Source: an uncultured archaeon
Lineage (GTDB): Archaea > Asgardarchaeota > Thorarchaeia > Thorarchaeales > Thorarchaeaceae
Assembly: GCA_964631415.1 (NCBI GenBank)
Contig: CAZVZC010000018.1
Coordinates: 1-36,533, forward strand
Reading direction: 5' to 3'
Length of the DNA stretch: 36,533 nucleotides
Shown here: piece by piece, positions 3,799 to 26,194 of the stretch
Layout: each line of letters opens with the position of its first letter
How positions within the stretch are numbered: the first letter of the stretch is position 1
Notes under the pieces: generated by a model
Told to the model about the DNA's origin: nothing
The model's database searches: none
Seen by the model: the letters and a program-made list of their open reading frames with translations, nothing else
Made by a program: the position numbers and the translations under genes

Positions 3799-5706
3799 AT
3801 GGGTAATCTGAAGATCACATTTGCGCTGGTGATTATGTTGTCACTTGGACAATGTGCGCCGTGCCTTCCTTCGGATGGCTCTGGCAATACAACTGATGAC
3901 TGGATCGGGTCCCTTGACGCAAGGTCCGATAAGACGCGGTGCGCCAGCACATTTGCCGATGAACCGCCCGTGCTCTACGACGAATTCAACTCGTCGTTCA
4001 CAGGCTATGACCAGTCGCTGTGGAATCTGGAAACATATGGGAATGGCAGTGTGAGCTGGGTTGGAGGGGAGCAGTTCAACATGTCAGCCGAGCGTCACTC
4101 GTACAGAGCCCTCTCCTCAAAGATGGTGTTCTCGGTTGGACATGTGGTCAACCTCAGGCTTCGAAGTCTTGAGAAGGAGGCAGTGGTCTTCATAGGCTGG
4201 ACAAACAAGACGGCAGAGGGTTGGAACTACAATTTCTGGGGCGATTCTGTCTACTTCCAGATAGCACTGTCCACAGGTCTGCTTGATGTTGTGAACGGCA
4301 GTGCTTCCCCCCAGAGAGTCTTGCTCGCCGGTTTGAACCCCTCCGAGTATCACGATTACAGAATCGTCTGGAACAACACAGCAGTTGTGGCGTACATAGA
4401 CGGTACAAGGTTGGGTGCAATTGCCACCCCGATACCTGATACCTCCCTGCACTTCAAGATCGCAATAACGGAATTCAGGAATATGACAACAGAGGGCTGG
4501 CTATGTTTAGACAGGATCAGCATTTCCCCTCACACATCCATGTCCACTGAGAACCCGCCCTTCATAGCTCTCAACAGTCCCGGGAATGGAACGACTAATC
4601 TGGGTGGGGATTCGATTGACGCAGTTGTAGTGGGATCGGACGGGTTTATGCAGTACCGCTGGGACGATGACCCGGCTGTAGAGGTTCCTGTTTCATTTGA
4701 CATGAAGCTCCCGCTTTCAGCAGGTACACATATGCTCAATCTGAGTTGTCGGGACGGCTATGGATTGGGCATTACTGCCTCAGCCCGCTTCGTCTTTCTG
4801 ACGCAGGGAGCCAAACCCAGACTATACGTACCGATGTGCAAGACTCCACCGGCGATTGATGGTCTCATACGCGAATGGAGCTCGGAAACCCGTTTCAGCC
4901 TGCCGATGACTAGGTACACAGGGGAGCAACTTGAGGTCAATGCATACATGACGTATGACCAGGAGTTTTTGTATCTGGGAATCGACTCACCTGTCGCATT
5001 AGGACATGACTCACGCGCCACGCTGATTATTGATGGCGTGTGTGATGGTCACTACCACGGATCAAACCGGACGCCAATGCTGTCCCTGTACTATCACAAG
5101 GGTTCACCAAAGGCATGGGAAGGCTACACTGAACTCCAGTTTCTCAACGAATCCGAAGCTGCAGGAGTCAGATCGTTCAGGATTTCGCCGTTTCCCAGCG
5201 GCGCAGTATCTGCATCCAATGAGGTGGGCTCTCACGTACAATATGAATTCAGATTGCCGCTGGACGAGCTGCTGGCTGGCCCAGGGTCCACTCTGGGAGT
5301 GGCCTTCATTCTTCTGCCTTCGGGAATGGGCGTGGACACCTGGTTCTTTCCTATGGTGAATCCATGGCAGAATGCTTCGAGGCTGGCACTGGCAGACCTC
5401 CTAATCCCGCCTGTTGACCCGTTGTTTCTGATAGCGGCCATCGTGGGTTGTGGTGCTGTTGCTGCCGTTGCGTATGTAGGATGGTTGCGATGGAAGCTCA
5501 GCAAGCTGCCCGCCATCCTTCAGACTGAGCAAGCAGAGCGGATTCGGGTGTTGGCTCAGTCGCACGACTCCATTACCATTGAGCGCCTATCCCAACTCGC
5601 TGGTGTGTCTCCAGAGGAAACGACTGCTGTCGTGCGAGCCTTAGTCGAGCATGGACGGCTGAAAGCAACTCTCGATGCAAGTGCAGGTGTCATAAGACGG
5701 AGGTAG
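3799..5706 (+). CDS. Paralog of the preceding gene: secreted lectin-like ectodomain, TM helix, cytoplasmic PCI-like winged helix
   Basis: Same domain order: YHDYRIVWNNTAVVAYIDG; PPAIDG...YMTYDQEFLYLGID...YEFRLPLDEL (CBM9/DOMON-like); TM FLIAAIVGCGAVAAVAYVGWL; tail ITIERLSQLAGV...LVEHGRLKATLD...GVI. About 13 NxS/T sequons, all N-terminal of the TM. Confidence 0.85.
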   Translation: MGNLKITFALVIMLSLGQCAPCLPSDGSGNTTDDWIGSLDARSDKTRCASTFADEPPVLYDEFNSSFTGYDQSLWNLETYGNGSVSWVGGEQFNMSAERHSYRALSSKMVFSVGHVVNLRLRSLEKEAVVFIGWTNKTAEGWNYNFWGDSVYFQIALSTGLLDVVNGSASPQRVLLAGLNPSEYHDYRIVWNNTAVVAYIDGTRLGAIATPIPDTSLHFKIAITEFRNMTTEGWLCLDRISISPHTSMSTENPPFIALNSPGNGTTNLGGDSIDAVVVGSDGFMQYRWDDDPAVEVPVSFDMKLPLSAGTHMLNLSCRDGYGLGITASARFVFLTQGAKPRLYVPMCKTPPAIDGLIREWSSETRFSLPMTRYTGEQLEVNAYMTYDQEFLYLGIDSPVALGHDSRATLIIDGVCDGHYHGSNRTPMLSLYYHKGSPKAWEGYTELQFLNESEAAGVRSFRISPFPSGAVSASNEVGSHVQYEFRLPLDELLAGPGSTLGVAFILLPSGMGVDTWFFPMVNPWQNASRLALADLLIPPVDPLFLIAAIVGCGAVAAVAYVGWLRWKLSKLPAILQTEQAERIRVLAQSHDSITIERLSQLAGVSPEETTAVVRALVEHGRLKATLDASAGVIRRR

Positions 5707-9846: not shown

Positions 9847-10024
9847 TCGGATTGTTCTCTGTGGAAAACCCGAGGCCGCTGCCCGCTCGCGCCTAAGGAG
9901 AAGACAATGCACGCTAGGACCTCGTTTTCCGAAACCTATGCGAGAGTCATCATCCCGGAACGGCCCATTGTTGCTTGCACTTGCACCAACCGCCGGCTCG
10001 TCTTTTCATGGAGGTGAATCTAGG

Positions 10025-13000
10025 TTGTCACTGAATGCCACACTGCATCAGATACTCGTGATTGTCATGTTGTCAATGCTCATGCTCAGTTCGGCGACTG
10101 TAGTCACGGCTGTAGCATCTGAAATTCCCGCTCTGCCAAAATCTCGAGTCAATGACGGCCTCGAAACACAAGTTACTGTGTACTTCGACTCGTCGGCCAA
10201 TGACATCATGTCGACTGTAGCGATGGTCAGTGGTTGCATCCAGCGGTGTGGGATTCCTGTTGTCCAATCTGGTGTGCAGTCGATCCTCTCTCTGGACTAT
10301 TCACTGGAAAGAAGCGACCCGGGGATTGCAGTGTACATCTTCGAGAGCAGCCTGAGTGGTATTATGATACAGAGTGAAGTTGTTTCATGGACGGAAGTTG
10401 CTGTTCTCACGACAACGCACAATCTGATGCACCATGTATTCGGCATTGGCAATGCAAAGTGCCTCCTTCAGTATGTTCCTGATTCAGAGAAACTGCACAT
10501 TGACCAGACAGACATGATAGACCTGAGAATCACGACCGTGTACTCCCTATGGACGACCGCAGAGATACTGATTCAGAGCGATAGCACTATAGACAGCACC
10601 AGGGGCGAACAGCTCAGAACACTGGTTCTCAAGGACTTCTGTAAGAACATAAACGAGATCATCTCCAAGGCTCTCTTTCCGAAGACCTACACTGGCGAAC
10701 GAGTCCCTCAGCCAATCACAAACCCAAGACTCACACAATCATGGGTTGTGGAGGAACCCCAGCTGGATGCTGCCGGGGTCGAGTTGAAGCCAATCATGAA
10801 GATGTCCACGCAAGACAACGCTAGTGAGTACGTACCCCTGAGAGAGGTCTGCCCTGAGAGCGGCGTCGGAGGTCCTATCGGTTGGCTGGTTGACGTTGTT
10901 CTGGCACTCCTTACGGCTAATGGATTTGAGGAGCTTCAATTGAACGTCGAGGCTGCTGAGGAGATCAACGATTACGTCGACGGACTTGTGAAGGACGCCA
11001 AAGACGACGTTGTTGACTGGTTCAGCGACGAGGGATTCAACATAACAGGCTATGACTTCGCCTCTGCCATGCCATCGCTGCTCCAGCGGCAGATGTTTGA
11101 GCTGTGGGCCCTGGGCGACGACTTGATAGCTGACGCATTTACGGAAGCGGACGACTGGCTGACATCATGGGTCGAGCAGGTAGTTGAGACTCCAGTGCAG
11201 ACGGACCTCATCGGACTCACACCGGTCTTCCTTCTTCGCGTGGGAACGCCAATCAACCTTGGTTCAGACTTCGCCAGCTTCGGAGCAGTGATACGGATCA
11301 AGTTGCTGCCCACCTTCGAAGCTGACGAAACAGCCTTTGAAACCTTCATGAACAACGCCATTTTCGGAAGTCTGAATCTAACGAGTATGACGAACGTGAC
11401 AGAGGCCTTCACGGAGGTCAGGAAGTTCATAGATGTCATACCTGTCCTTGACATGGATCTGGCAGTCTGTGCGTTCCTGCCCAGCAAGAGCGCGTGGCTT
11501 CAGACCATCATGAGCCCCTTGGAGTTCAACTTCTTCGGAGCCGCTAGCATGCAGCTGGCGTTCCCGCCAATCGATGCATCGAACACCGAAAGGTCATTCA
11601 TTGAGGTCCGGTCCTGGTCACTCAAGTTCGATGTCGATGCTTCATTCACTATCACAATCTCAGCACTCCTTTCGGTACCCGGAGTGAGCGGAGTTGTAGA
11701 TACGATTATGGACACACTCTCTGAACTCCTCAGTGCCACTATCACTTTGACAGTTTCGGTCACATTTGAGATAAGCAAGCAGTATGTCGGCCAAGGGAGC
11801 CCCGCACGATCGAGTGTTGTTATTGACATTGTTGTTGGTGCCAGCATCCAAGTCCGAATACTCGTGGTCATATTCAGAGGAACATTCCAAGTAGGACTCA
11901 GGTTCCAACAGACTTCGGGAGGGTCCAGCAACTCCTCGACTCTGCTAGCTGATCAGGAGTCGCCTTTCACAACTAGTTCTCTTGCAGCAACCACACTGTC
12001 GGTTTCTCTAACGCTATACTGCTCGCTCTATTTGGGCGTTGACGTAGTCGGCGTAGGAACTGGTGCAGAGCTCGGTCCTTGGACAGATACCTATTCGCTT
12101 TCAACGTCTTGGGGTAGCAGTGACTACCTGACGAGCTCTGCGGACTTGACTGACACGGATCAGGATGGTCTTCCTGATGCCTTTGAGAGCCGAATGAACA
12201 CTGTGATGGGCACGACCTATCTGAGCACCAGCTCATCTGACACAGACTCAGATGGACTCAATGACAAGCTGGAACTCGAGCTCAATACTGCACCGAACGT
12301 CGCCGACACAGATGTAGACGGACTTCGTGATGGTCTAGAAGTGAAGACGTACTTGACAAACCCGCTGCTCAACGACACTGACAGGGACAACATCACGGAC
12401 GGTCAGGAAGTACTGGTGTACAAGACGAACCCGCTCGTGGTGGACACTGATGCAGATGGCCTAAGCGACTACTACGAAATCAACCGGGAATACGATGTTA
12501 CAAATACGAAAGGCACCTACGGTGCTGTCAACTCTGTCAAGATTGGCAACACGTACTATGACGACCGAACAGACCCTGTGAACTCTGACACGGACAATGA
12601 CGGCTTGCTGGACGGTGAGGAGGCCGAGAACGGGGTTGAGTATGCAAATGATACGGTAATCGCTGCTTGCTACTATGTCAAGAACAAGTACACAAGTCCC
12701 TTAGACGCTGACACCGACGATGATTCCGTATTCTGGGAGTGGCAGGATATTCCTCAGCAATTCGAGCCTGGCACATCGTACCTGAGAAACATGATAGACG
12801 GTGTCGAGGTGCTGGGTCAGTATATCACATTCATCGATAGCGAAGGGTATCCTGACGTGCAGTTCGTGAAGACGAACCCTGTCAACCCGGATACAGACAA
12901 TGACACTGGGGGCACCATCCTCTTCAACTCAGATGGTTACGAACTCACTTTGAGCCCACCAACTGACCCCACAAACGGCGACACTGACCATGATGGTCTG

Positions 13001-14722
13001 CTGGATGGCCGAGAAAAGATTGGTCCGTATGGGACCGGAACCGATCCAAACAGAGCTGACACGGACAATGACATGCTGCCAGACTATGAGGAGGTCACGC
13101 TGGCGACCAATGCAAGGGACCCTGACACTGATTCCGACGGTGTGATGGACGGCGAGGAGTACTACAAGTACGGGACCAGTCCCTTCCTCAACGACACTGA
13201 CATGGATGGCCTCACTGACTCGGAGGAGCTGTTCGAGTTCTATTCGAATCCACTTGTTCGGGACTCGGACGCAGATGGCTTGGATGACGGTGAGGAGGTC
13301 TTGTCCTATCTTACTGACCCCGTCAATGCGGACTCAGACTACGATGTGCTACTCGACGGCTATGAGGTACTTGTGTCTATGACAGACCCCATGCTGTTTG
13401 ACACAGACGTCGACGGGCTCGGGGACGGTGATGAACTGCTGATATATCATACAAACCCGCTTGATTGGGACACCGATGACGATTCCATCACGTTGACAAA
13501 TGAGTTTGGCAGAATCAGTTTCGCTTGGGGTGACGGAGCCGAGGTGGCATTCGGCACAAACCCCACATCTTCAGATTCCGACAACGATGGTCTGACTGAT
13601 GGAGAGGAGCTCTATCTGGGTCTGGGTTCTGCTGTCTTGGATCCCGTGCCGCTCAACCCTTTGTCAAACGACACCGACGGTGACGGTCTTTCCGATGGTG
13701 AAGAGATGATCATCGAGAATGTGTCGCTGAATACCTACCCATACTGGGGCTTAGTGGTAAGCCTCCGCTATGGCTCATGTCCTGCGAAGTTCGACAGTGA
13801 CGGTGACGGACTCAATGACACTGCTGAGGTGACCTATCTGTGTGATCCCACAAAGCCCGACACTGACGGAGACACAATGAGTGACGCCGTCGAAGTATAT
13901 GTGACCCATACAAACCCCACAAACAACGACACGGATTATGACGACATTCCAGACAACATGGAGTCAACAAACACGACCGAGTTTGCATTGGCTGCTGAGA
14001 TGTCTGGATGGGACTATGTGCCAAGTCAGTGGCCCATGTATCCGACATCTGCAACGGACAGTGACACAGATGACGACCTGCTGCCCGATGGCATTGAGCT
14101 GATTTACCACACTGGTCAGCTCAACCCAGATTCAAATGGAAATGGGGTGCTGGATGGAATGGAGTTCGATGCCGATGGTGACGGTCTGAAAGATGGAGAA
14201 GAGTTCTACATTTACAGAACGAACATGGGACCGCTTCCGATCGAGAACGGTACATGGATAGGAGAACCTGGCGGGTTCAATAATCCGGACAGTGATGGAG
14301 ATGGTCTCTCAGACGGCGTTGAAGTGCACACCTATGGCACTGACCCGACAGCGGCAGATTCAGACGAGGACGGTCTATCAGACGGCGAAGAGGCATCGCT
14401 TGGACTGAATCCACTTGTGCCGATTGTTCAAAGCGGTCCGACCTGGTATCTCATTGCAGTTGGGGCTGTCATTGGACTGGCCGCCGGCATTGGTGGTGAA
14501 ACGCTTATCTTGCTCATCAGGCAACGCGGCCTGAGATTCTGGAGATCGGGGAAGGCTTCAGGAAAGACTCCAGACCAGGAAACTAAGACCCCTGCCGCTG
14601 CCAAGACTGAGGTTGCGGCCGAGTCATCCCGGGAAGAGCCTAAGGAGCAAGAACCTGCCGCAGGTGAGAAGAGGACAAGGAAACGCACGACAAGAACAAC
14701 AAAGGAGAGTGGTAAGGCATGA
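10025..14722 (+). CDS. Large membrane-anchored surface protein/adhesin with ~26 thrombospondin type-3-like (DxDxDG) Ca-binding repeats
   Basis: The ORF is open from 9938, but TTG 10025 has a perfect GGAGGTGA SD (10010-10017) and is followed by a signal peptide. It contains repeats D[TS]DxDGLxDGxE...TNP, a C-terminal TM (WYLIAVGAVIGLAAGIGGETLILLI) and a K/E/T-rich cytoplasmic tail. Confidence 0.88.
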   Translation: MSLNATLHQILVIVMLSMLMLSSATVVTAVASEIPALPKSRVNDGLETQVTVYFDSSANDIMSTVAMVSGCIQRCGIPVVQSGVQSILSLDYSLERSDPGIAVYIFESSLSGIMIQSEVVSWTEVAVLTTTHNLMHHVFGIGNAKCLLQYVPDSEKLHIDQTDMIDLRITTVYSLWTTAEILIQSDSTIDSTRGEQLRTLVLKDFCKNINEIISKALFPKTYTGERVPQPITNPRLTQSWVVEEPQLDAAGVELKPIMKMSTQDNASEYVPLREVCPESGVGGPIGWLVDVVLALLTANGFEELQLNVEAAEEINDYVDGLVKDAKDDVVDWFSDEGFNITGYDFASAMPSLLQRQMFELWALGDDLIADAFTEADDWLTSWVEQVVETPVQTDLIGLTPVFLLRVGTPINLGSDFASFGAVIRIKLLPTFEADETAFETFMNNAIFGSLNLTSMTNVTEAFTEVRKFIDVIPVLDMDLAVCAFLPSKSAWLQTIMSPLEFNFFGAASMQLAFPPIDASNTERSFIEVRSWSLKFDVDASFTITISALLSVPGVSGVVDTIMDTLSELLSATITLTVSVTFEISKQYVGQGSPARSSVVIDIVVGASIQVRILVVIFRGTFQVGLRFQQTSGGSSNSSTLLADQESPFTTSSLAATTLSVSLTLYCSLYLGVDVVGVGTGAELGPWTDTYSLSTSWGSSDYLTSSADLTDTDQDGLPDAFESRMNTVMGTTYLSTSSSDTDSDGLNDKLELELNTAPNVADTDVDGLRDGLEVKTYLTNPLLNDTDRDNITDGQEVLVYKTNPLVVDTDADGLSDYYEINREYDVTNTKGTYGAVNSVKIGNTYYDDRTDPVNSDTDNDGLLDGEEAENGVEYANDTVIAACYYVKNKYTSPLDADTDDDSVFWEWQDIPQQFEPGTSYLRNMIDGVEVLGQYITFIDSEGYPDVQFVKTNPVNPDTDNDTGGTILFNSDGYELTLSPPTDPTNGDTDHDGLLDGREKIGPYGTGTDPNRADTDNDMLPDYEEVTLATNARDPDTDSDGVMDGEEYYKYGTSPFLNDTDMDGLTDSEELFEFYSNPLVRDSDADGLDDGEEVLSYLTDPVNADSDYDVLLDGYEVLVSMTDPMLFDTDVDGLGDGDELLIYHTNPLDWDTDDDSITLTNEFGRISFAWGDGAEVAFGTNPTSSDSDNDGLTDGEELYLGLGSAVLDPVPLNPLSNDTDGDGLSDGEEMIIENVSLNTYPYWGLVVSLRYGSCPAKFDSDGDGLNDTAEVTYLCDPTKPDTDGDTMSDAVEVYVTHTNPTNNDTDYDDIPDNMESTNTTEFALAAEMSGWDYVPSQWPMYPTSATDSDTDDDLLPDGIELIYHTGQLNPDSNGNGVLDGMEFDADGDGLKDGEEFYIYRTNMGPLPIENGTWIGEPGGFNNPDSDGDGLSDGVEVHTYGTDPTAADSDEDGLSDGEEASLGLNPLVPIVQSGPTWYLIAVGAVIGLAAGIGGETLILLIRQRGLRFWRSGKASGKTPDQETKTPAAAKTEVAAESSREEPKEQEPAAGEKRTRKRTTRTTKESGKA
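12152..14410 (+). repeat. Intragenic TSP3-like Ca-binding repeat array (protein-level repeats)
   Basis: About 26 DxDxD(G) units, mostly ~23-24 aa apart, with several longer inserts. The DNA copies are diverged. Confidence 0.9.
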
Positions 14723-17700
14723 GTGATGCGAGACGGACCCTGATAGCGGCGTCCATCATCTTGATGATGGCTTTGATTGTCGTTCCAACATCGCCTCCGG
14801 GATTCCTACCCACATTACTGCCTGATGAGAATGTTTCTCCAGACCAACAGAGGGACTCTCCGAATCTCATGCTGGACGGTGAGTTCAACCTCACGAATGA
14901 CTACCAGCTCATCTGGGAGCCCAACAACATACAGGGTTCGTCACATGCGGTAGCCACCTCTCCGAACAAGAACCTCATTGCAGTTGCTGGCGGATACCTC
15001 TCTGACAGCGAGGTGCATGTCTACAGATGGGATAACGCGTCAAAAGACTACATCCATGTGTGGGACGCTGGCAATGACTTAATCCGGAGTGATGTGCAGG
15101 ACGTCGCCATTGCGGACGCTGATAACAATGGTTTGCTTGAGGTCTACGCGGCCAGTGCAGACGGCAGGATATATGTATTCGAGGCGAGGGGTTTCGAGGA
15201 AGGCTTTGTCTACCTAGACAACGCGAACAACGTCTTTGAGCTTGTCTGGGACAGCCAACTTGCCATACGTCGCCAAGTCTGGTCTGTCAAGGTCGAGGAC
15301 GTCGACCATGACAATCAGGGCGAGATTGTAGCTGGTTGTTGGGACAACCGCGTCCATGTGTTCGACTACGTCGATCATTCTAACTACCCATACTGCCCAA
15401 GTCATTCGATGAGTTTCATACATGTGTGGGACAGCGGAAACCAGATTGGAGGACGGGTATACGATGTCGCTGTCGGCGACACTGATTGCGATGGTCGGAC
15501 CGACATTCTTGCGGCAAGTTATGACTGCCGGGTCTACGTGTTTGAAGAGATCCCATGCTTCAAGCACACATACCAGAAGAAGTGGGACAGTGGCGACGCG
15601 ATGTCCAAACCTGTCATTTCTATGGCGGTCAGCAACAATCTGGATGAAGACCAATACGGCGAGATTGTCGCATCAGCATACGGCGACGGAGTCTATGTCT
15701 TCGAGTACAATTCCACCAGTGCCAGTTACGATGTATTGAGAATCAATCGACAACTGGAGAGCTGGGAGGAGGGCACTGTATACACAGCAGGTGTGTGGAC
15801 AGGCTACGAGGCAGATCCATACGTGGACAAGAAGGTCTATGGATGGGAAGAACAAGGAGTCTACGAACTCGACCCACGACCGTACCCCTGGAAGACTATT
15901 GCGATTGGCGGCAATTCCTGCTTAGGCGGCCCCCGCGATTTGAACTGCACCACTTTTCAGCTGCCTGAGGTCTACAGCTATCTCTCAACATGGGGTGCGA
16001 ATGGCTCCCTCGCAGGTCAGTTCTATCTTCCAGATGACATCGCTTTCGATTCTTACTCGAATGCGTACGTACTTGACACTTCGAACAGCCGTGTCCAGAA
16101 GCTGACTGGGGCTGGTCAGTTTGTCGACGCTTGGGGAGAGCTTGGAAGCGGCGTAGGGCAGTTCAAGTGGCCCCAAGGCATATGTGTTGACGCGCAGTCC
16201 TATGTCTACGTTTCTGATACGTGGAATCACAGAATCGTGAAGCTGAACCCGGATGGAGTATGGCTGGCTTCTTGGGGAAACGAAGGAACCGGCCTTGGTC
16301 AGTTTGAATATCCAATGGGTATCGCGGCGGACTCCTCTGGGCGTCTGTATGTCTGTGACTCTCTCAACATGCGAATACAGGTGCTGGACACGGAAAGCGG
16401 TGCCGTAGTCAATTCCTGGGGCGCCAACGGTTCGGGTCCAGGTCAGTTCTACTATCCTTTGGCAATTGCCGTTAGCGAACTGGGTATCTATGTGGCCGAC
16501 ACCTACAACAACAGAGTCCAGATGTTCACCTCAGAGGGCGACTTCGTACTGCAGTGGGGCAAGCTAGGCGAAGACGCAGGTGACTTTGGCTATCCTGACG
16601 GGATTGCATGTGACCTCGAAGGCAACGTGTATGTCAGTGATACAGGCTACGACCACATTGAGAAGTTCACTGCTTCAGGCCGCTTGATAACAAACTTTGG
16701 CTCAACTGGTACCGGTTTCGGCGAGCTTACGGGTCCACGTGGACTGGAAGTTGCTCCCAATGGGGCAGTCTATGTTGTTGACTCCTCGAACAGCCGTGTA
16801 GAAGGCTTCGCCATTCAGAAGTACTCTCTGGACAAGACAATCGGTAGTTTGGGGACAAAGGTCGGTCAGTTCTACTTCCCGAGTGACGCAGCTATCGACG
16901 ATCAAGGGTACATCTTCGTATCTGATTCCAGCAACAACCGAATCCAGAAACTGGCCGGTGATGGCACCTGCATCACGTTGTGGGGAGAGCTGGGTGCAGG
17001 GGAAGGCCAGTTTAACTTCACATCGGGGATTGCAGTGGGCAATGGGAATAGCGTCTATGTCGTCGATCGAAACAACAATCGCATCCAGCGTTTCGACAGC
17101 GAGGGCAACTTCCTGAGGGCATGGGGTGTCAAGGGTTCGGGTGATGGGGAATTGCTCAGTCCCACTGACATAGATATTGGCCCAGATGGTACGCTGTACG
17201 TTACCGACACGGGCAACGACCGCATATCGCTGTTCACTTCAGAGGGTGATTTCATCAGGACCTTCGGTTCACACGGTGACCAGCCCAACCAAGTGGACAC
17301 CCCGTACGGTATTGCCGTTAATGAGCAAGGCACCATATTCGTCACTGAGAGGGGCAACAACAGAATCCATCTCTTCGACAGCGAGGGAACGTCCGTTGCC
17401 TACTGGACAGGCGAGTTCTCCGAGCCCTTGAGGATTGAACATGATGGATACGGGAATCTGTATTTGACCGTAATCAAGGGCACTGCCATTGCATTGATGA
17501 AGTTCACGATGGAGGGCATGCCACTTGGAAGCCTGCCGACCACAATCTCGAACTATCGGACATCTGTAGACTTGCAGATGCCTCTAGGGATTACGTTCGA
17601 CCGTGCAGGGGATCTCTTGATTGTGGATACGTGGGCAGGTGTTGTTGTAAGAACGTACACGGATTTCGTGCTCAATTCTGTGGCAGAGGCAATCGTAGAC

Positions 17701-20667
17701 TTTGGGCAGTATGAAGAGCTTGGCGGATCCGCGTCCTCAAGAGCAGATCTCTGGCTGTACTTCCCAGACGACGATCCCGAACTAGAGGACCTAGAGTTTG
17801 CTATATCACAGGACCAGCAGACGTTCGTCGACATATCCGCTACGAGTATCACCAAGAGCTACATCTTCATCATGTCCTACGGCCTTGTGCGCTTGATAGG
17901 CATCAATGTCGACCAGGTACTGCGGCAGAATGGATGGGAGAACTACCGATACCTGAAGATAGGTGTCAAGAACGGTGCCTCATACAACATTGACTCCGCA
18001 TATGGGACTCTATCTAGACCTATTGATAACGCCCTAGTTGTGACCACAGGCCAAATTGATCACACTGACGAAGGTGACACCACCGAGTACATCATCATGG
18101 GGACAGTGGACGGAGCAATCTCGGCGTATACATCCAGCGGTGCTGCGATATGGCAGAGCACGGAAGAGTCACCCCGTTTCGACCTGAACGTCAGCATTCG
18201 TGACATAGTTGAATTGGATCGTCGCGGCAGAATGCCGACTTGGCATTACACTGGCAATCTTGTCACCGGCTCATACCTTGGGACCTTGGGATTGGGTACA
18301 TTCTCGAGGATAGAGGGCTACACTATGGGTGACATAGATGACGATGGCGACCTTGACATGATGCTCTCGATGAATGTCGGGACCTATTCTGCCTTGGTCT
18401 ATCTATCAAACACCGGTACCAACTCAAATCCGAACTACGTGTACCACACAGACTACTTCGAAGACCACACATCTCTGGGCGGGAACACCATCTTCGGATT
18501 CTCAGTGCCGTACCTAGCAGACCTTGACTCAGACGGGGACTTGGACCTCATCATCAGTGAGTTTGAAACCGACATCGAGGGTGTCGTCCATCTCTGGTAC
18601 CTAAGATACTTTGAGAGGACCGCGGCTGACTACTTCACGGAGGTATCCTCCGTGTTCACCACCCCGAACACAGTCATTCAGTCCGAGGCTATTCTCGCCT
18701 ATCCGTCTTTCAAGGACATGGACGGTGACGGAGACTTGGACCTTACGCTGGGTTGCGATTCTCTCTACTACTTCAAGCGTTCAGGAACAGGGTCGTCTTT
18801 CTTCTGGACTGAGGATGACGAGTTCTATGACGCAATCAACAAGACCATGAGACCGACCGAGGTCGTGGGTAGAGTGGCGTTCTGTGATTTCGATCGTGAT
18901 GGAGACTGGGACCTGACGATTGCGCACGCATATGAGAACTACACCCACGATGGCCTCAAACCCGCCACCAGTAGGCTGACATACTGGGAGAACACGGGAT
19001 ACCTGACTAGACCGGAGTGGGTAAAGCGCAGGCCTTTCTATGACCCTGACTTCCGTGGATCAGCATTGACTGAGGACCGCGGTTACTGTGAGCCATACGT
19101 GTACGACATGAGTGGTGACGGGGTGCTTGATCTAATGGCGATGCAGAATTCCAGCATCGACTGTTACTACGGATCACTTAAGCATAACAGCTACGTGCTC
19201 GCAACGTATCCTCTTGTCCACATGATAGAGATAGACCAGAGGTCGGAATCTGACTACTACTACGGTTACAGTGCGTACGACTCGTGGGATAACCATCCCG
19301 CATTGGACAACTGGACCTGTTCCATAGCGTATGACGACACCGATGACGATGGCAAAGGAGATGTTGTGGTCGGGTCGTTTGACAACAACATCTACACCTT
19401 CGAATGGTGTGCGAACAACACGTATCGTAGGGCCTGGAGATCGAGCGATCTTACACACGGTGTCTTGGAGTATCTCAGCTACCACACAGCATGGGATGAT
19501 GTCAGAGACATCACAATCGAAGACACTGACAATGACAACAAGAAGGAGATTGTTGCTGTATCTGGCTACAGTGTCTTCGTTTTCGAGAATGTAGTAAACG
19601 ATGTCTATCAGCTAGTGTGGGGCAGCGGTGATACCATTCCCGCAATGATGGGAGTCGACTACCCGGTAGTATCGACTGTCACAGTCGACAAGGACCTTGA
19701 TGGAGACGATCGGCCCGATATCATCGTGACCTCGCAGGCCTGGGTGTTCGTCTACGAGTGGATTGGCGATGATCAGTACTCGCTCGTGTACAGCGACATG
19801 GTCGCTCTCACAGGCAAGATATACGATATCCTCACTGCTGACACGGACGGGGATGGCTTCAGAGAGATCATCTTAGGAGGTGCCAGCGAGTGGTATGATG
19901 TATGTGGGCTGGCAAAAGACAGGGAAGGCTGGGTGATTGTCTACGAGAACATGAAGGACGATGACCGCCATGTCGACAATGGCTATGAGTATGAAACGTT
20001 CGTAGGCAGCTACGGATTGTACGGTGTGTATTCCTTGGCTGTCGCTGACAACGACCAAGACGGCTGGCCTGAGCTCTTTGTCGGCTATGAACAAACTAGC
20101 ACTCTGGATTCGGGGATAGACATCTGGGAGGCGAATGGCGAGAACAGCTACATCATGTGGAGACGCTACTCCACGCCAAAAGCTGTCACTTCGATGCTTA
20201 TCGCAAACACTGATGGTGATAGCTGGATGGAGATAATCGCTGGTAGTGGAAAGAGGGTGATGGTGCTGGAGCAGAACTGGACGTACACCGGAGGTGACAT
20301 GAGTCTGAAGTACTACACATATGTATGGAACAGCTCCTCCTTGGCAGAGAACATCACAGATCTGGCCATAGGCGACAGCAATGGCAACGGGCGTCTCGAG
20401 ATATTCGTGTCTGCCGCCAAGGGCAATGTCTATGGATTCGAGTGGGTACAGAACGCTACTTCAACACAGAATCCTGCCGTGGCTCTGGCAGCAAGTGAAT
20501 CTGAATGGTCTGATGCCGCGAGCAGATGCAGCGGAAACCCGATATGCTGCACTGACGCTTCGCCAACGAAAGCAGGCAACTCGCTTTCCTCCGGAAACGT
20601 AGACATTAGCACAAGATCCGCGAAGACACACACCGGATGTGTATTGGATAGGAGGTTAGAGAAATGA
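14719..20667 (+). CDS. 1982-aa secreted beta-propeller protein with FG-GAP/VCBS-like repeats and 12 NHL repeats
   Basis: N-terminal hydrophobic signal. DxDxDG.xE/D repeats (DADNNGLLE, DVDHDNQGE, DIDDDGDLD, DLDSDGDLD, DTDGDGFRE). NHL consensus WG..G...GQF..P.GIA.D..G.VYV.D..N.RIQ.F. ATGA overlap with the upstream gene. Confidence 0.9.
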   Translation: MSDARRTLIAASIILMMALIVVPTSPPGFLPTLLPDENVSPDQQRDSPNLMLDGEFNLTNDYQLIWEPNNIQGSSHAVATSPNKNLIAVAGGYLSDSEVHVYRWDNASKDYIHVWDAGNDLIRSDVQDVAIADADNNGLLEVYAASADGRIYVFEARGFEEGFVYLDNANNVFELVWDSQLAIRRQVWSVKVEDVDHDNQGEIVAGCWDNRVHVFDYVDHSNYPYCPSHSMSFIHVWDSGNQIGGRVYDVAVGDTDCDGRTDILAASYDCRVYVFEEIPCFKHTYQKKWDSGDAMSKPVISMAVSNNLDEDQYGEIVASAYGDGVYVFEYNSTSASYDVLRINRQLESWEEGTVYTAGVWTGYEADPYVDKKVYGWEEQGVYELDPRPYPWKTIAIGGNSCLGGPRDLNCTTFQLPEVYSYLSTWGANGSLAGQFYLPDDIAFDSYSNAYVLDTSNSRVQKLTGAGQFVDAWGELGSGVGQFKWPQGICVDAQSYVYVSDTWNHRIVKLNPDGVWLASWGNEGTGLGQFEYPMGIAADSSGRLYVCDSLNMRIQVLDTESGAVVNSWGANGSGPGQFYYPLAIAVSELGIYVADTYNNRVQMFTSEGDFVLQWGKLGEDAGDFGYPDGIACDLEGNVYVSDTGYDHIEKFTASGRLITNFGSTGTGFGELTGPRGLEVAPNGAVYVVDSSNSRVEGFAIQKYSLDKTIGSLGTKVGQFYFPSDAAIDDQGYIFVSDSSNNRIQKLAGDGTCITLWGELGAGEGQFNFTSGIAVGNGNSVYVVDRNNNRIQRFDSEGNFLRAWGVKGSGDGELLSPTDIDIGPDGTLYVTDTGNDRISLFTSEGDFIRTFGSHGDQPNQVDTPYGIAVNEQGTIFVTERGNNRIHLFDSEGTSVAYWTGEFSEPLRIEHDGYGNLYLTVIKGTAIALMKFTMEGMPLGSLPTTISNYRTSVDLQMPLGITFDRAGDLLIVDTWAGVVVRTYTDFVLNSVAEAIVDFGQYEELGGSASSRADLWLYFPDDDPELEDLEFAISQDQQTFVDISATSITKSYIFIMSYGLVRLIGINVDQVLRQNGWENYRYLKIGVKNGASYNIDSAYGTLSRPIDNALVVTTGQIDHTDEGDTTEYIIMGTVDGAISAYTSSGAAIWQSTEESPRFDLNVSIRDIVELDRRGRMPTWHYTGNLVTGSYLGTLGLGTFSRIEGYTMGDIDDDGDLDMMLSMNVGTYSALVYLSNTGTNSNPNYVYHTDYFEDHTSLGGNTIFGFSVPYLADLDSDGDLDLIISEFETDIEGVVHLWYLRYFERTAADYFTEVSSVFTTPNTVIQSEAILAYPSFKDMDGDGDLDLTLGCDSLYYFKRSGTGSSFFWTEDDEFYDAINKTMRPTEVVGRVAFCDFDRDGDWDLTIAHAYENYTHDGLKPATSRLTYWENTGYLTRPEWVKRRPFYDPDFRGSALTEDRGYCEPYVYDMSGDGVLDLMAMQNSSIDCYYGSLKHNSYVLATYPLVHMIEIDQRSESDYYYGYSAYDSWDNHPALDNWTCSIAYDDTDDDGKGDVVVGSFDNNIYTFEWCANNTYRRAWRSSDLTHGVLEYLSYHTAWDDVRDITIEDTDNDNKKEIVAVSGYSVFVFENVVNDVYQLVWGSGDTIPAMMGVDYPVVSTVTVDKDLDGDDRPDIIVTSQAWVFVYEWIGDDQYSLVYSDMVALTGKIYDILTADTDGDGFREIILGGASEWYDVCGLAKDREGWVIVYENMKDDDRHVDNGYEYETFVGSYGLYGVYSLAVADNDQDGWPELFVGYEQTSTLDSGIDIWEANGENSYIMWRRYSTPKAVTSMLIANTDGDSWMEIIAGSGKRVMVLEQNWTYTGGDMSLKYYTYVWNSSSLAENITDLAIGDSNGNGRLEIFVSAAKGNVYGFEWVQNATSTQNPAVALAASESEWSDAASRCSGNPICCTDASPTKAGNSLSSGNVDISTRSAKTHTGCVLDRRLEK
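15973..17655 (+). repeat. Twelve NHL repeats (two 6-bladed propellers)
   Basis: Twelve ~45-47-aa units counted; the last two are divergent. Confidence 0.85.
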
Positions 20668-22460
20668 AGAATACAGCGACACGTTCCCTAGCATTAGCAG
20701 TCTTGATTGGGGTCCTTTCCCTTGCTATGCTTTCTCCAATAGCACCCATGGAAGTTGCGCAGACTAATGCTTCTGTATTGAGTCCTCGCCTAACTCGTAT
20801 GATAGACAAGTGGCCCCTGAATCTTGACGAGTCTACTTCAAACATGGCAAGCGTTCTGGCATCAATTGATGAGCCTCCATCCATATCCTCTTTCGTGCAT
20901 CCTAACTGGGAGTATAGGGACTGTTTCAACTTCACCAATAGCGAATACACCTTCGGGCCCGAAGTGATGACAGAGGAGGAAGTTGAGGAGAACCTTAGGA
21001 ACTACATCTTCCAGCTTCTATATGGAGACATAGAAGCAGCCTGTCGTGTCAGCATTCTGGACATCATGTTGTTTCGGGTTTTTGATTCTCTGATAGTGGA
21101 TTGGATAGGCATAGACTTCATGGGCTTCTGCAATGGCATGTCGATGGCCTCGAGAGACTACTTCATGGACTCGTCGAAAATCCCTCTCGGCAAACACTAC
21201 GCTTACGATCTGCCCTCACCTGACCCTAACTCTACGATTGCCGAGCAGACTCAAGGCGACGTCACAGAGTCCGCAATCAAGGAGTACGTGCTTTGGAAGG
21301 GGTCTGCAGCGTTCTTCAATCCGAATCACCTGCTGAACTGGGTCAAACTGTACCTAGGTCTCTCTCTACAGTCAGGCGGGACGAACAATGCACTGGAGTT
21401 CCAGAAGCTAACGCAACTCATGATGAAAGGCTCACCACAGTATCAGCCTGTAGTGATACTCATGACGGCCGCCGTCTGGGAGAACTCGGACCCCGGGAAG
21501 AGCCACTTCGTAGTCGCCTATGACTATGAAACCAACTCGAACGGAACGAAGACAATATACATCTATGACAACCGTATTCACTTCAACTCGAGCTGTTTCT
21601 GGCACGAGGACTGGATCTTATTGGGTAGTGACGGGACCTTCTCAGGTACTCACCTCTCTCCTGAGAAGGCGGATGTATGGAGGCGGATGTGTGTGTACCC
21701 TGCGTCATGCGAGTACAATAGCATACTTACGACATTGGCGGCTTTGCTACCGAATGCTCTTCAGTTCCTCGCTTTCTGCCCCGTAGACCTGATAATCACA
21801 GACCCACTCGGAAGGAAGGTTGGCCCCGGACCCGACGGCCAACTAAGGGCTGAGTTCCCTGCCATCTATGTGGAGGATGGAGACCAGGATATTGTGTTCA
21901 TGCCCTATGCTCCTGGTCTGCCGTACACTCTGAATGTGACCGGAACAGGTCAAGGTAACTACACGCTGGAGATCAACAGAGTCGTGGACGGGCAGATTGT
22001 AACTCAGTCGTTGAATGGACAGACTGAGGAAGGCAAATCGGATGTCTTCTCTGTTGCCGCAGCCGGGGGAAGTCTGAACTTCGCAAGACAAGGGGTAGTC
22101 CTGAGCGTGCCAACGATTACGTCTGCATCATCTGTCAACCTTCAGTGGAGCCGCTATGATGGTCTTGACTTCAACAGGTACGAAGTTCTACAGTCGACAT
22201 CTCTAGGAGAACTAGGACAGGTCGTGGCGACAGTTGGCAACCAGGACACTACATCGTGCAGTGTTTCGAATCTCCAACCCGGGGCAACGTACTTCTTCAC
22301 AGTAAGAGTTGACAGTTCAGACTATGGGGCTCTTGGCTCGAACCAAGTAGGTGCGGCAATGCCAGAGTCAGCATTTCCTTGGACGTGGGTTGCAGTCGGA
22401 ACAGTGGGTGCTGCAGCAGTCATAGTCGTGCTTGCTCTGAGCTGTAAGAGCAGGAAGTAG
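20664..22460 (+). CDS. Membrane-anchored papain-like (Cys-His-Asp) peptidase/transglutaminase-like protein with Ig-like and fibronectin type III domains
   Basis: Signal peptide; GFCNGMS (C156); KSHFVVAY (H281); IYIYDN (D302); CPVDLIITDPLGRKVG Ig-like module; FN3 (VNLQWS...YEV...VSNLQPGATYFFTVRV); C-terminal TM followed by KSRK. ATGA overlap with the upstream gene. Confidence 0.75.
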   Translation: MKNTATRSLALAVLIGVLSLAMLSPIAPMEVAQTNASVLSPRLTRMIDKWPLNLDESTSNMASVLASIDEPPSISSFVHPNWEYRDCFNFTNSEYTFGPEVMTEEEVEENLRNYIFQLLYGDIEAACRVSILDIMLFRVFDSLIVDWIGIDFMGFCNGMSMASRDYFMDSSKIPLGKHYAYDLPSPDPNSTIAEQTQGDVTESAIKEYVLWKGSAAFFNPNHLLNWVKLYLGLSLQSGGTNNALEFQKLTQLMMKGSPQYQPVVILMTAAVWENSDPGKSHFVVAYDYETNSNGTKTIYIYDNRIHFNSSCFWHEDWILLGSDGTFSGTHLSPEKADVWRRMCVYPASCEYNSILTTLAALLPNALQFLAFCPVDLIITDPLGRKVGPGPDGQLRAEFPAIYVEDGDQDIVFMPYAPGLPYTLNVTGTGQGNYTLEINRVVDGQIVTQSLNGQTEEGKSDVFSVAAAGGSLNFARQGVVLSVPTITSASSVNLQWSRYDGLDFNRYEVLQSTSLGELGQVVATVGNQDTTSCSVSNLQPGATYFFTVRVDSSDYGALGSNQVGAAMPESAFPWTWVAVGTVGAAAVIVVLALSCKSRK

Positions 22461-22644
22461 TCGCTTAGCCAAGTCTGGACACATCTGCTGAACATGATCC
22501 TGCTCTGCGTCTGGGCAGTTGTATCGATGTGTCGCTGGACGGCAGAGAGCGCCGGGGGTGGATTTCGGGTTAGTGGACAAGTGTGTTCGAATGTGAGGCC
22601 ATACTTGGACCGATGAATAGCTCAATCCATCGGTCAGTACCGAG

Positions 22645-24237
22645 CTAACTCCATGTCACAGTGTAGACGGCCATGTTACTGGTCCCGCATACGACATTCG
22701 GTTCTATATGAGCCGAAACAACCTTGTGGACACTGCCTCCAATATGAGAGATCTCGTCCCACAAGTACACAAACCACTCTTCGTAGAACATTATGTAGTC
22801 ACAATGGATGTCCTTGAGGAACTGGGCCTGCTCCGGCACGGTCGTGTGGTTATGCAGTACTTCAGGGGTGACTAGCCCATAGACATCGATGACTGTGCAT
22901 CTGCTGAAGTAACCGAGTGCGCCCACATCGTATGTGGCAATCACTGCGTCCTCAGGCACATTGTCTCTTACCCATTCTGACAACGTGACCTGCATCTGAT
23001 TGATGTTCATGATCTGATTGGCATGAATGTCTACGTGAAGTATGTACGAGCTTAGCGATGGAGTGAAGAGTAGTAGAACCACCATACTGGCCACGAAAGC
23101 CCTATCTGTCGTCGTGAACCCGGGGAGCTTCACTCTGTTCAGTAGTTTCTCGAACGCTACGAATCCGCCAGCGACGAAAGAGATGGCAAGAAGGTCGAAG
23201 AGCGGCACCAGGTATCTAGCAGCGAACAGCAATGACATGCCTGGCATTGTCAGTCTGTAAAGGACGAACAGAGAGGTACTCATCACCAATTCGAAGGGTC
23301 GACGCTTGAGGAGGAGCGCCATGCCACCAACGAAGCCCAGCGCCAAGTAGGGTTCAGTAGGGAACCATACCTTATACCAGAAGAAGTCCCAGTAGCTGAT
23401 GTCGGTTTGGGTAACCCCCCATCTCAGCTTGGAATAGTAGGAATCGGGCAGCGGCAGTCCCGTAGTGTTGAGACAGTGCAGAACCCACGGGGCTACCACA
23501 AGAGCCGCGATCGCAAACATCCCTCCTATTGAGATCAGTCTTCTTATGGCCAACCTGTCCTTGGCAAGCAGCCAGATGGCACGAAGAGGCAGACAGACTG
23601 CAGCTATCAGCACGAATTCCGGACGGCACAGGTAGGAGAAACCTGCGACTAGGCCCAGGAGTAGATCGTATTTGGTGTCCTTCCTCGGCAGCAGTATGAG
23701 CGTCAGAAGGAGCATCATCATTGCTAGTGGAGTTTCCATTCCTGAGAGCATCAAGCCTGCGTTTCGCGGCACAAGAACGAAGACGGCTTGTGCCAGAATC
23801 CCGACCTGCCATCGGCCTGTGTGTTCCTTGACTAGATATCCGACCAAGGATGTGTCAACAGCATACAAGAACACGCTGATCAGTAGTACCGAAGCAACAA
23901 CCGTGTCCCGAGCATAGCCAAGAACAAAGATGGGCGCTAGGAGGACTGACCAAAGGGGTGCTGAGCTTCCGGTGCTGGGAATACCCTGAGCATACTCCCA
24001 GGGGTGACCGTCGAATATCGTGCGAGCGTACTGCAGGTGTATCCATGCATCGTCAAAGGGAAAGCCGAACACACCCCAGACAGCGGCCACTGCCAAGATG
24101 TGGGCAACAGACAGGAGGGTGATGACTGCTCCAGTGACGAACATGGAAGGCCAACCATTGCGTGCCAGCAAACGTTCAGCTGCCTGCTTGAACACCATGG
24201 ATGCTTTCTGCACTTCAGTAGATGATGATTCGGACAC
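22645..24237 (-). CDS. Polytopic membrane glycosyltransferase (GT-C superfamily)
   Basis: FDDAWIHLQYAR after TM1, then STGSSAPLW, SGMET and RPE, many TM helices and a C-terminal extracellular domain (DVGALGYF...IDVYGL). The ORF is open to 24306; GTG 24237 follows a GGAGG SD. Confidence 0.8.
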   Translation of the reverse strand: MSESSSTEVQKASMVFKQAAERLLARNGWPSMFVTGAVITLLSVAHILAVAAVWGVFGFPFDDAWIHLQYARTIFDGHPWEYAQGIPSTGSSAPLWSVLLAPIFVLGYARDTVVASVLLISVFLYAVDTSLVGYLVKEHTGRWQVGILAQAVFVLVPRNAGLMLSGMETPLAMMMLLLTLILLPRKDTKYDLLLGLVAGFSYLCRPEFVLIAAVCLPLRAIWLLAKDRLAIRRLISIGGMFAIAALVVAPWVLHCLNTTGLPLPDSYYSKLRWGVTQTDISYWDFFWYKVWFPTEPYLALGFVGGMALLLKRRPFELVMSTSLFVLYRLTMPGMSLLFAARYLVPLFDLLAISFVAGGFVAFEKLLNRVKLPGFTTTDRAFVASMVVLLLFTPSLSSYILHVDIHANQIMNINQMQVTLSEWVRDNVPEDAVIATYDVGALGYFSRCTVIDVYGLVTPEVLHNHTTVPEQAQFLKDIHCDYIMFYEEWFVYLWDEISHIGGSVHKVVSAHIEPNVVCGTSNMAVYTVTWS

Positions 24238-24451
24238 GATGACAGTGTCCTCCCTGCTGCTTCTATGAACTCTGGATGCGGTGCCCAACTGACTTCTAAG
24301 CAACATGGCGCCCCGATAAATGTGTCCTTCTGCGGTTGGGTTATTAGCCTGTTAATGGGGCGTTCCAGTCATCTTCGTGAGTCGACAGCAAGATTCATTC
24401 ACTGCGGCGTCACACACAAGAACATCTTGAGCGGCAGTGGCGGCGGGCCAT

Positions 24452-24895
24452 ATGGAGGAAAACCAACTTCGGCGCAAGGTCAGACGTGTGTTGAGTTCTC
24501 AGCTCTTTGCTGTCTTGGCCACCTCGAAGGATGACGACCCTTACTGTTGCTTGGTGAGCTACGCAGTGACTGATGACCTGAAGGGCCTTGTCTTCGCTAC
24601 AATGCGCAACAGAACGAAGTATCGTAACATGGCGTCGAACCCGCGAGTGTCACTACTGGTTGACACCCGGAAGAATGTGCGCGAAGACATCAGGAGAGCA
24701 ACCACTGTGGCAGTCGTAGGCATTGCTGACGAAACAGTTGGCGAGGAAAAGCGCAGTTGTGCGAGTATTCTCCTAAGAAAGCACCCGGGCCTCAAGGAGT
24801 TCATCAACTCCAGTGACTGTGCAGTGATGAAAGTTCGAGTGGACAAGATGCTCGTTGTTTCGAACTTCGAGTCGGTCGCCGTCTTGGATTTATGA
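24452..24895 (+). CDS. Pyridoxamine 5'-phosphate oxidase-like FMN-binding split-barrel protein
   Basis: FAVLAT...PY..LVSYA...LVFAT...T.KYRNM..NPRVSLLVD pattern. ATG 24452 is preferred over GTG 24437. Confidence 0.88.
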   Translation: MEENQLRRKVRRVLSSQLFAVLATSKDDDPYCCLVSYAVTDDLKGLVFATMRNRTKYRNMASNPRVSLLVDTRKNVREDIRRATTVAVVGIADETVGEEKRSCASILLRKHPGLKEFINSSDCAVMKVRVDKMLVVSNFESVAVLDL

Positions 24896-24905
24896 GGGAT
24901 CTTTC

Positions 24906-25240
24906 ACAGCGAAGAGGCTGTCTTCCGAAGTTAGGCTCGACCCCATGTCACAAACGACATGGTCGTTGACCAGCATGCAGTCAATGACCGCGTAAGTTGG
25001 TGCTCACGCACTTGCTCCGCGACGAGCAGCAGGCTTTGCCCTTTGGACCATGCAAGACCTGCTGGGAAGCCGCTACTCCAGCAGTAGCAGCTCCCCACAC
25101 TGACCCGTCAGGCTCCTCCTTCCTGACCTTGAATGATCAGTGTTGCTTGCGTCACTCGAATTCCTTCGAGCGACATGTAGGTATCAGCTAGCCTAGAAAT
25201 GAACATCCTTGTGTTGCATGGCACACCAGGAATGCTTGAT
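24906..25240 (-). ncRNA. Candidate multi-hairpin structured RNA (unknown family)
   Basis: About 8 nearly abutting hairpins enclosed by a terminal 6-bp stem (24932-37 with 25190-95), plus flanking hairpins. Most stem mismatches are A-C on + (G-U on -). One loop is a GGAA tetraloop on the minus strand. Confidence 0.5.
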
Positions 25241-25336
25241 TGCCGCCGATGTCTTGGGCTGGTTTCCTGTCTGCCTACAATAGAATCATAAAGAGGCACT
25301 GCTCAATACGATGTCAGCGCAAAGCGAGGCTTCACA

Positions 25337-26194
25337 ATGTCAGGCAAGGAACTGAAACGCGGTGGAAACATCATATACAGGTTGCTCTCACAGGATCTTT
25401 ATGCCACTGGAATGCACGGCGACAAGGTGGGTTTCAGGCAAGACGAGCAGTGGCGTCTGAAGAGTCGCCAATTCACCCAAGACTCGGATATAGTAGGTAA
25501 GATTGAGGAGTCGAAGCTCAAGAAGGGGACCAAAGACCTCACGCCTAGAGAGAAGATTGGATTCATAACAATCCGCAATGCTCTATGGCGCGACGAAAAG
25601 GAGGAGCTGTCTCGGCGCTTAGTCATCAAGCTGTTCTCTAACAATGGGAACTGGCTTGCTTCGCTCGAGGAGATGGTTGCTGAGGAATACGCTCTCAGCT
25701 TTGTTTCTGAGGCTCCCTTGATGGTGTTCTCTGTTCTGACAAAGGAAACCGATGTAGTCACCTACATACGTCAAGGGAAGCGTGGCGCGCTTGCGACTGA
25801 GAGCTATTCGTTCTACGTCATTGGACCCCAAGGAAACTTCGAAGTGTTCAGGATTGAAGGGGCGCGTGTTTCTGCAGGAGACGACTTTAGTGTGCGTCTA
25901 CTGACCTACGATACTCCTGTCGCGAAAGTCGATAGCAAGTTCGGCGACATAGGGGGAGATTTCACCGTTTCGGTCAACGACGCAGTGCTCGCTGAGAACG
26001 AATGGTTCTGCAGGGTCTTGCAGTGTTTCGCCGTAGCCATCAAGTACAGAGATGAAATAAGAGCGCGGCTGGACAAAGGACTGAAGGCATGGGCTGCAGG
26101 GAAGGCTCATCCGACCCAGCACAGGCACGAGCTCAGTCTGTTAGCTAACCCTCGTAGACTGACATTAAAGGCGGATGAATTCGACGAGGTCTGA
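25337..26194 (+). CDS. LURP-one/tubby-C/scramblase-like beta-barrel protein
   Basis: Repeated beta-hairpin units FRIEGARVSAGDDFSV and VAKVDSKFGDIGGDFTVSV, followed by a hydrophobic helix FCRVLQCFAVAI. Confidence 0.55.
   Translation: MSGKELKRGGNIIYRLLSQDLYATGMHGDKVGFRQDEQWRLKSRQFTQDSDIVGKIEESKLKKGTKDLTPREKIGFITIRNALWRDEKEELSRRLVIKLFSNNGNWLASLEEMVAEEYALSFVSEAPLMVFSVLTKETDVVTYIRQGKRGALATESYSFYVIGPQGNFEVFRIEGARVSAGDDFSVRLLTYDTPVAKVDSKFGDIGGDFTVSVNDAVLAENEWFCRVLQCFAVAIKYRDEIRARLDKGLKAWAAGKAHPTQHRHELSLLANPRRLTLKADEFDEV

Follow-up and report, generated by a model that had tools for sequence, protein, structure and literature searches.

CsrB/RsmZ-type sponges carry GGA motifs in their hairpin loops and have CsrA as their partner. 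The trans-encoded small RNAs of archaea are represented by sRNA162 of Methanosarcina and sRNA257 of Sulfolobus (PMC4152357, PMC3510493), prokaryotic small RNAs being typically restricted to one group (PMC4152357). In Alphaproteobacteria, the cuckoo/ar14 small RNAs (RF02344) are defined by a CCUCCUCCC motif that is present in every hairpin loop (PMC4615179).

Asgard archaea are the closest prokaryotic relatives of eukaryotes, and their non-coding RNAs are barely catalogued. The window analyzed here is a stretch of 36,533 nucleotides from contig C18, which belongs to a 2.16-Mb Thorarchaeota genome (G000) that is 85% complete. A previous reading of the sequence alone, hereafter called the sequence-only reading, had proposed in this window a free-standing, ~330-nt multi-hairpin RNA on the minus strand, belonging to no catalogued family. 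The comparison with homologs indicates that there is most likely a non-coding RNA of ~120 bases with three hairpins and its own promoter, real but far smaller than ~330 nt; it is probably a previously unlisted small structured RNA gene, of one third of the proposed size. The minus-strand and free-standing nature of the RNA and its lack of a catalogued family are thus retained, whereas the size, the many-hairpin architecture and the promoter that had been assigned to it are not. No such RNA turned up in the literature searched, and the present result contributes a probable new small RNA gene, the ends of which can be tested.

The element shares with the archaeal trans-encoded small RNAs its intergenic location, an own promoter (here predicted), stem-loops and a narrow taxonomic range. 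It differs from sRNA162 and sRNA257 in that it shows no match to them by sequence or model, no target was found for it, and nearly its full length is contained in very stable, sequence-invariant helices. The mode of action of the predicted RNA would most plausibly be that of a small archaeal RNA specific to its lineage (PMC4152357).

The locus and its conserved core

The RNA element sits in a gap of 441 nt between a gene of the pyridoxamine 5'-phosphate oxidase family, hereafter PNPOx-like (24437-24895, plus strand; Pfam PF01243, E 5.6e-12), and the gene of a conserved hypothetical protein of 285 residues (25337-26194, plus strand), which is present in 58 of the 86 family genomes and whose homologs carry the label Candidatus Thorarchaeota. 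The PNPOx-like gene is convergent with the predicted RNA and is found at every RNA-bearing locus, and the 285-aa gene is divergent from the RNA. A Pfam search with the 285-aa protein gave no match; its tubby/LOR likeness in the atlas, at only 0.87, is a lead. The minus strand at 22645-24237 encodes a 530-aa protein that travels with the PNPOx-like gene and is without Pfam match; it is possibly a membrane glycosyltransferase, its nearest atlas clusters being bacterial, mostly from Chloroflexota, with one cluster bearing PMT_2. Elsewhere in the window, three successive large surface-type proteins (9938-22460, plus strand; TSP3 repeats; NHL and FG-GAP repeats; fn3) are absent between the same flanks in the Thorarchaeota isolate OWC3 (L061), the spacer between convergent genes at 22461-22644 has 96% identity to L044 with a weak folding signal and is possibly a constrained element, and a 635-aa protein (3799-5706, plus strand) shows a C-terminal match to the PCI domain (E 6e-6), a domain of eukaryotic-signature type.

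Homologs of the element were gathered by DNA search and from contigs encoding the flanking proteins. They comprise OWC3 (G002), which is the nearest relative carrying the element, the lake-sediment sequences L043, L071 and L077, plus L076, so that the six compared sequences represent about four close lineages. All the hairpins listed in the sequence-only reading are present in the sequence, and a stretch of 346 nt folds better than its shuffles (z of -4.57 on the minus and -4.15 on the plus strand), but this signal comes only from 25064-25176. On the minus strand, z lies between -5.9 and -7.3 for 25060-25180 in all six homologous sequences, as compared with -0.5 to +1.0 for 24900-25060 and -0.8 to +0.8 for 25180-25260. 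Each of the six hairpins placed on the 3' side (24906-21, 24943-62, 24961-89, 24990-25009, 25013-28 and 25028-63) has two to five pairs fewer in the most distant homolog and they are mostly broken in the remaining ones, and the helix that was thought to close the whole structure (24932-37 with 25190-95) is broken in four of the five homologs. The 3' flank (24900-25055), with minus-strand z around zero and its pairs broken in the homologs, lies outside the conserved element.

What stands out is a core of ~121 nt on the minus strand (25056-25176) that forms three adjacent helices, with a predicted 5' end at 25176 or 25174 and a 3' end that is uncertain, conservation stopping at ~25056. By folding, this core ranks second among 10,062 intergenic windows of 120 nt genome-wide, ahead of tRNA-Sec. 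(The tRNA-Sec gene of this genome, as expected for Thorarchaeota, is located at C16:14846-14936 on the minus strand.) Helix 1 (25149-25176), of 10-11 bp with a loop of 4-8 nt, has the predicted transcription start at its foot; 96.9% of its cells are paired, and the one-sided variation seen at three of its pairs keeps the pairing. A linker of 5 nt separates it from helix 2 (25097-25143), which has a 9-bp outer stem (96.3% paired), an asymmetric internal loop and a short inner stem. Four inner base pairs (25129-25126 with 25113-25110) are invariant; the 6-bp inner stem that had been drawn earlier loses its register in L043, L071, L076 and L077, and one helix-2 pair is broken in L071 and L077. 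The apical loop of helix 2 (25114-25125), with 12 purine-rich nucleotides including a Shine-Dalgarno (SD)-like AGGAGG, is the only long conserved unpaired part and a candidate binding site. Helix 3 (25064-25096) has 13-14 bp, two G-U pairs and a variable loop of 5-7 nt to which its variation is confined, 13 of 13 pairs being invariant in the six homologs, and is followed on its 3' side by a conserved tail of 8 nt.

Across the six sequences, from which the structure was itself derived, 98.2% of the cells pair, against 35-42% for slid partners. In the preferred structure, the six sequences show one-sided changes that keep pairing at six pairs and changes on both sides at none; the three-helix fold is consistent with the homologs, not proven by covariation. 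We consider the minus strand to be the functional one because ten stem states form G-U pairs on this strand as opposed to two on the plus strand (G-U versus A-C when read on the minus), a wobble bias that had been noticed for the longer structure and is borne out for the core. The homologs share no conserved reading frame, their six-frame translations differing in both stops and residues; a small protein gene, which should show an open frame kept across homologs and changed mainly at silent positions, was ruled out.

The putative promoter

A likely promoter lies on the minus strand at 25196-25215, where a purine-rich, BRE-like stretch precedes the TATA-like box GTTCATTTC (25204-25196). This box is invariant in the six homologs, and the 20-nt block that contains it (25215-25196) is identical at 18-20 of its 20 positions. 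Letter for letter it equals the one that precedes the RNase P RNA gene of G001, a genus mate, and the RNase P boxes of G000, G002 and G003 are one-letter variants of it. From box to first G, the distance in RNase P RNA is 30-31 nt; from the present box to hairpin 1 it is 28-30 nt, as for RNase P. The RNase P spacing lands on 25174 and a spacing of 28 nt on 25176, each of these being a pyrimidine-purine step where helix 1 has its foot. Genome-wide, a fold below -45 kcal/mol after such a box occurs only here and at RNase P RNA. The assignment is likely rather than certain, since a matrix trained on tRNA promoters scores the box weakly, only near the 99th percentile, and detects within the 20-nt block a site on the plus strand as well; a promoter matrix trained on genes was uninformative. 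Because the promoter is assigned to 25215-25196, the closing helix of the sequence-only reading would have its 5' arm in promoter DNA and not in RNA, and the same would hold for the additional hairpin at 25202-36.

The TATA-like element at 25286-92, which had been taken for the upstream element of the RNA, is part of a promoter-like motif on the plus strand (25278-25293) that scores better on this strand with most matrices. It probably serves the 285-aa gene, since it is kept before that gene in relatives without the RNA (L053 and L059).

The RNase P RNA genes of the genus have a non-canonical TATA-like box with a TTCATT or TTAATT core ~30 nt upstream, as seen in G000 (contig C33, upstream of 4353 on the minus strand) and in L129, L130 and L132. 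Such an RNase-P-type box may mark other stable RNA genes in the genus, for the finding of which it would be useful.

Conservation and distribution

The core is identical to that of OWC3, its most distant homolog, at 111 of 121 positions (92%), compared with 85 of 156 (54%) in the 3' flank and with 57% at the four-fold degenerate sites of the flanking genes. This conservation is far above neutral (binomial p about 1e-17) and above that of the 3' flank (Fisher p 3e-12). Other intergenic spacers nearby are likewise conserved (66-96%), and conservation alone is therefore no proof of function.

The RNA was found only in G000 and G002 by a DNA search of 101 relatives, by pattern matching and covariance models applied to 86 genomes of the family and 151 of the phylum, and with laxer filters on 40 relatives, the searched genomes being incomplete and the models built from few sequences. 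Exact-pattern searches of collections of metagenomes, genomes and viruses retrieved only OWC3-type sequence or chance matches, viral contigs did not contain the RNA, and among the regions preceding 30 orthologs of the 285-aa gene it is absent outside the clade. In G001 and G003, which belong to the genus, neither the RNA nor the PNPOx-like gene is present. As far as found, the RNA is confined to one sub-clade of one genus, a restriction that makes a core cellular role unlikely and limits the weight of the finding. A match of 32 out of 38 positions between the 3' boundary of the element and a gene on contig C6 (E 8e-4) was treated as chance, as it is absent from G002.

Some related loci deserve mention. 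The syntenic place in L026 (G016) is a gap of 466 nt that contains, on the opposite strand, a similar purine run and then a 13-bp hairpin, located ~100-200 nt ahead of the 285-aa ortholog; with an alignment p of 0.06 and weak folding, this is a possible, very diverged homolog of the RNA. In L017 (G034) and L020 (G010), the 285-aa ortholog is preceded by a gap of 300 nt that is moderately structured (z about -3) and has a similar G/C-rich hairpin base, and in L017 a PNPOx-like gene (40% identity) occupies the same position as in the window.

Known RNA families and possible function

No family of Rfam 15 matches the window at the gathering cut-off, and the best E values in permissive scans are 0.16-1.2. 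As the sequence-only reading had maintained, the hallmarks of RNase P, SRP helix 8, the T-loop and box C are absent. Archaeal RNase P RNA (RF00373) has a genus-level variant of the promoter box and its spacing in common with the element but neither structural nor sequence likeness, and it was ruled out by the absence of the P4 pseudoknot signature and by the presence of the real gene on contig C33 (161 bits). The resemblance to helix 8 of archaeal SRP RNA (RF01857) extends to a GGUCAGG stretch, an asymmetric loop and a hairpin preceded by another hairpin; by contrast, helix 5, the Alu domain, the apical stem and the tetraloop are lacking here and AGGA replaces AGCA. SRP RNA was ruled out as well: the CAGG/AGCA pattern of helix 8 is absent, the profile and model of Thorarchaeota SRP RNA do not score the element, and SRP RNA has ~300 nt and one gene per genome, whereas the conserved part here has ~120 nt and the SRP RNA gene of G000 lies on another contig (C1:7150-7458, equal to L012:1501-1809). 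A C/D or H/ACA guide was rejected, given that there is no box C and no terminal ACA and that two CUGA motifs lie inside stems.

The multi-site GGA sponge entertained in the sequence-only reading fares poorly. GGA in a hairpin loop is indeed shared with the CsrB/RsmZ sponges, but it is conserved here in one loop only, neither the GGAA tetraloop nor the GGA of loops 1 and 3 being invariant among homologs, and CsrA/RsmA (PF02599) was not found in four genomes of the genus (83-93% complete); a sponge of this type is not supported. The cuckoo/ar14 RNAs have, like the present one, ~120 nt and three adjacent hairpins, and the reverse complement of our RNA has a C/U-rich middle loop. However, the opposite strand is favoured here, which makes the loop SD-like instead of anti-SD, and the stems are invariant, not variable. 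This family was excluded because the C-rich loop is only one and on the disfavoured strand, with a score far below the cut-off.

The core as such is very probably functional, and there is good reason to regard it as an independent minus-strand RNA. The best explanation overall, which we advance tentatively, is a gene for a small non-coding RNA that is transcribed independently and acts as decoy or scaffold. As judged from the sequence, the RNase-P-type box at 25204-25196 would be bound by TBP and TFB, with transcription starting at position 25176 or 25174, where helix 1 has its foot, and producing a stable RNA of ~120 nt in which helices 1 and 3 would shield the ends and make a rigid frame. 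Helix 2 would display its purine-rich, SD-like loop, resembling mRNA, to a protein or to the anti-SD of the small ribosomal subunit, and the RNA would work as a decoy, or as the scaffold of a ribonucleoprotein, instead of pairing with one mRNA; this mechanism, too, we hold as provisional. Pairing of the loop with an archaeal anti-SD can extend over 6 bp, or over 5 bp for the loop of L071; the general archaeal sequence served as the anti-SD, the 3' end of 16S rRNA being masked in G000. SD motifs are used in this genome, with 111 occurrences of GGAGG against 47 in a control window. The complement of the helix 2 loop is found in none of 11 cases on the coding strand, its occurrences being almost only antisense to genes or intergenic; this near absence from coding strands suggests that the loop resembles mRNA rather than complementing it. 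Protein or ribosome binding is favoured by this mRNA-like loop together with the invariant stems and the fixed G-U pairs. A narrower proposal, that a stable Asgard RNA with a housekeeping-type promoter sequesters small ribosomal subunits or an SD-binding protein as an SD mimic, is a long shot; if true, it would make the element a type of translation-decoy RNA that has not been described in archaea.

The main rival, which we consider unlikely, is a base-pairing small RNA with an unseen target, modelled on archaeal sRNA162 or sRNA257: the same minus-strand RNA would act in trans, its helix-2 loop or 3' tail pairing with C/U-rich untranslated regions of mRNAs. Its size, narrow distribution and own predicted promoter fit prokaryotic small RNAs, and three of three loop changes are transitions tolerable to a U- or G-containing partner. 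Against it, the best duplexes with 1,680 start regions have -29 to -32 kcal/mol when shuffled loops give -28 to -34, and the near absence of the loop complement from coding strands also counts here. That the RNA would instead be cis-antisense, pairing with plus-strand read-through or the 3' UTR of the PNPOx-like gene and uncoupling the latter from the 285-aa gene, appears improbable. The joint presence of RNA and PNPOx-like gene at all loci seen, and their joint absence from G001 and G003, would agree with it, but such co-occurrence among kin amounts to plain synteny; antisense action needs neither invariant stems nor fixed sequence, the RNA is nearly fully paired, and its end lies ~160 nt away from the PNPOx stop. 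The plus strand could alternatively carry the function, as a three-hairpin RNA or UTR element whose C/U-rich anti-SD loop blocks ribosome-binding sites in the manner of cuckoo/ar14 or RsaE. It does fold (z -2.9 to -5.4), it has a weak likeness to Rfam ar14 (E 0.16 and 1.1) and an anti-SD loop would find many SD targets; yet the ten-to-two excess of stem states that pair on the minus strand only, the absence of a conserved plus-strand promoter before 25058, and ar14 scores of 13.9-19.6 bits against a cut-off of 58.8, with a single C-rich loop, make this quite improbable.

A DNA-level structure or mobile-element remnant (a hairpinned transposon end, an orphan TnpB guide scaffold or a MITE), either without function or working as single-stranded DNA, would account for the narrow and patchy distribution, G-T wobble suits single-stranded DNA too, and the genus has TnpB-like genes. 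We nevertheless judge it distinctly unlikely, for the element occurs as one copy each in G000 and G002, unlike a MITE, terminal or target-site repeats of at least 8 nt were not found, the RNA model has no match at TnpB loci, and the constraint far exceeds neutral; a MITE, IS remnant or TnpB guide RNA proper was discarded for want of multiple copies, terminal repeats or a tnpB link. The element might also be a degenerate copy of the SRP RNA S-domain serving as SRP54 decoy, with helix 2 corresponding to a helix 8 that lacks the apical stem and helix 1 at the site of helix 6. By eye, the apex of helix 2 looks like the symmetric loop of helix 8, and the motif occurs only nine times in the genome on both strands. 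The idea is highly improbable, however, as the element aligns to the SRP RNA of the same genome no better than shuffled sequence does (p 0.58), nothing in it is recognized by a profile built from 29 Thorarchaeota SRP RNAs, a covariance model of 20 SRP RNAs gives E 1.1 with helix 3 only, and the AGCA strand and the apical stem are missing.

Several side observations may be added. Thorarchaeota SRP RNAs often score below the Rfam cut-off (27 of 77 are above it) and have unusual apical loops in helix 8, many with AACA replacing AGCA; those of genus g1 score lowest (67-76 bits). G003 contains ~35 TnpB-like zinc-ribbon matches, versus 1-3 in its genus mates. In G000, further intergenic windows of 120 nt with z below -5, candidates for additional structured RNAs, are located at C30:17177 (-), C5:34417 (+), C28:18657 (-), C6:9817 (+), C40:12857 (+), C5:75977 (+) and C1:110377 (-).
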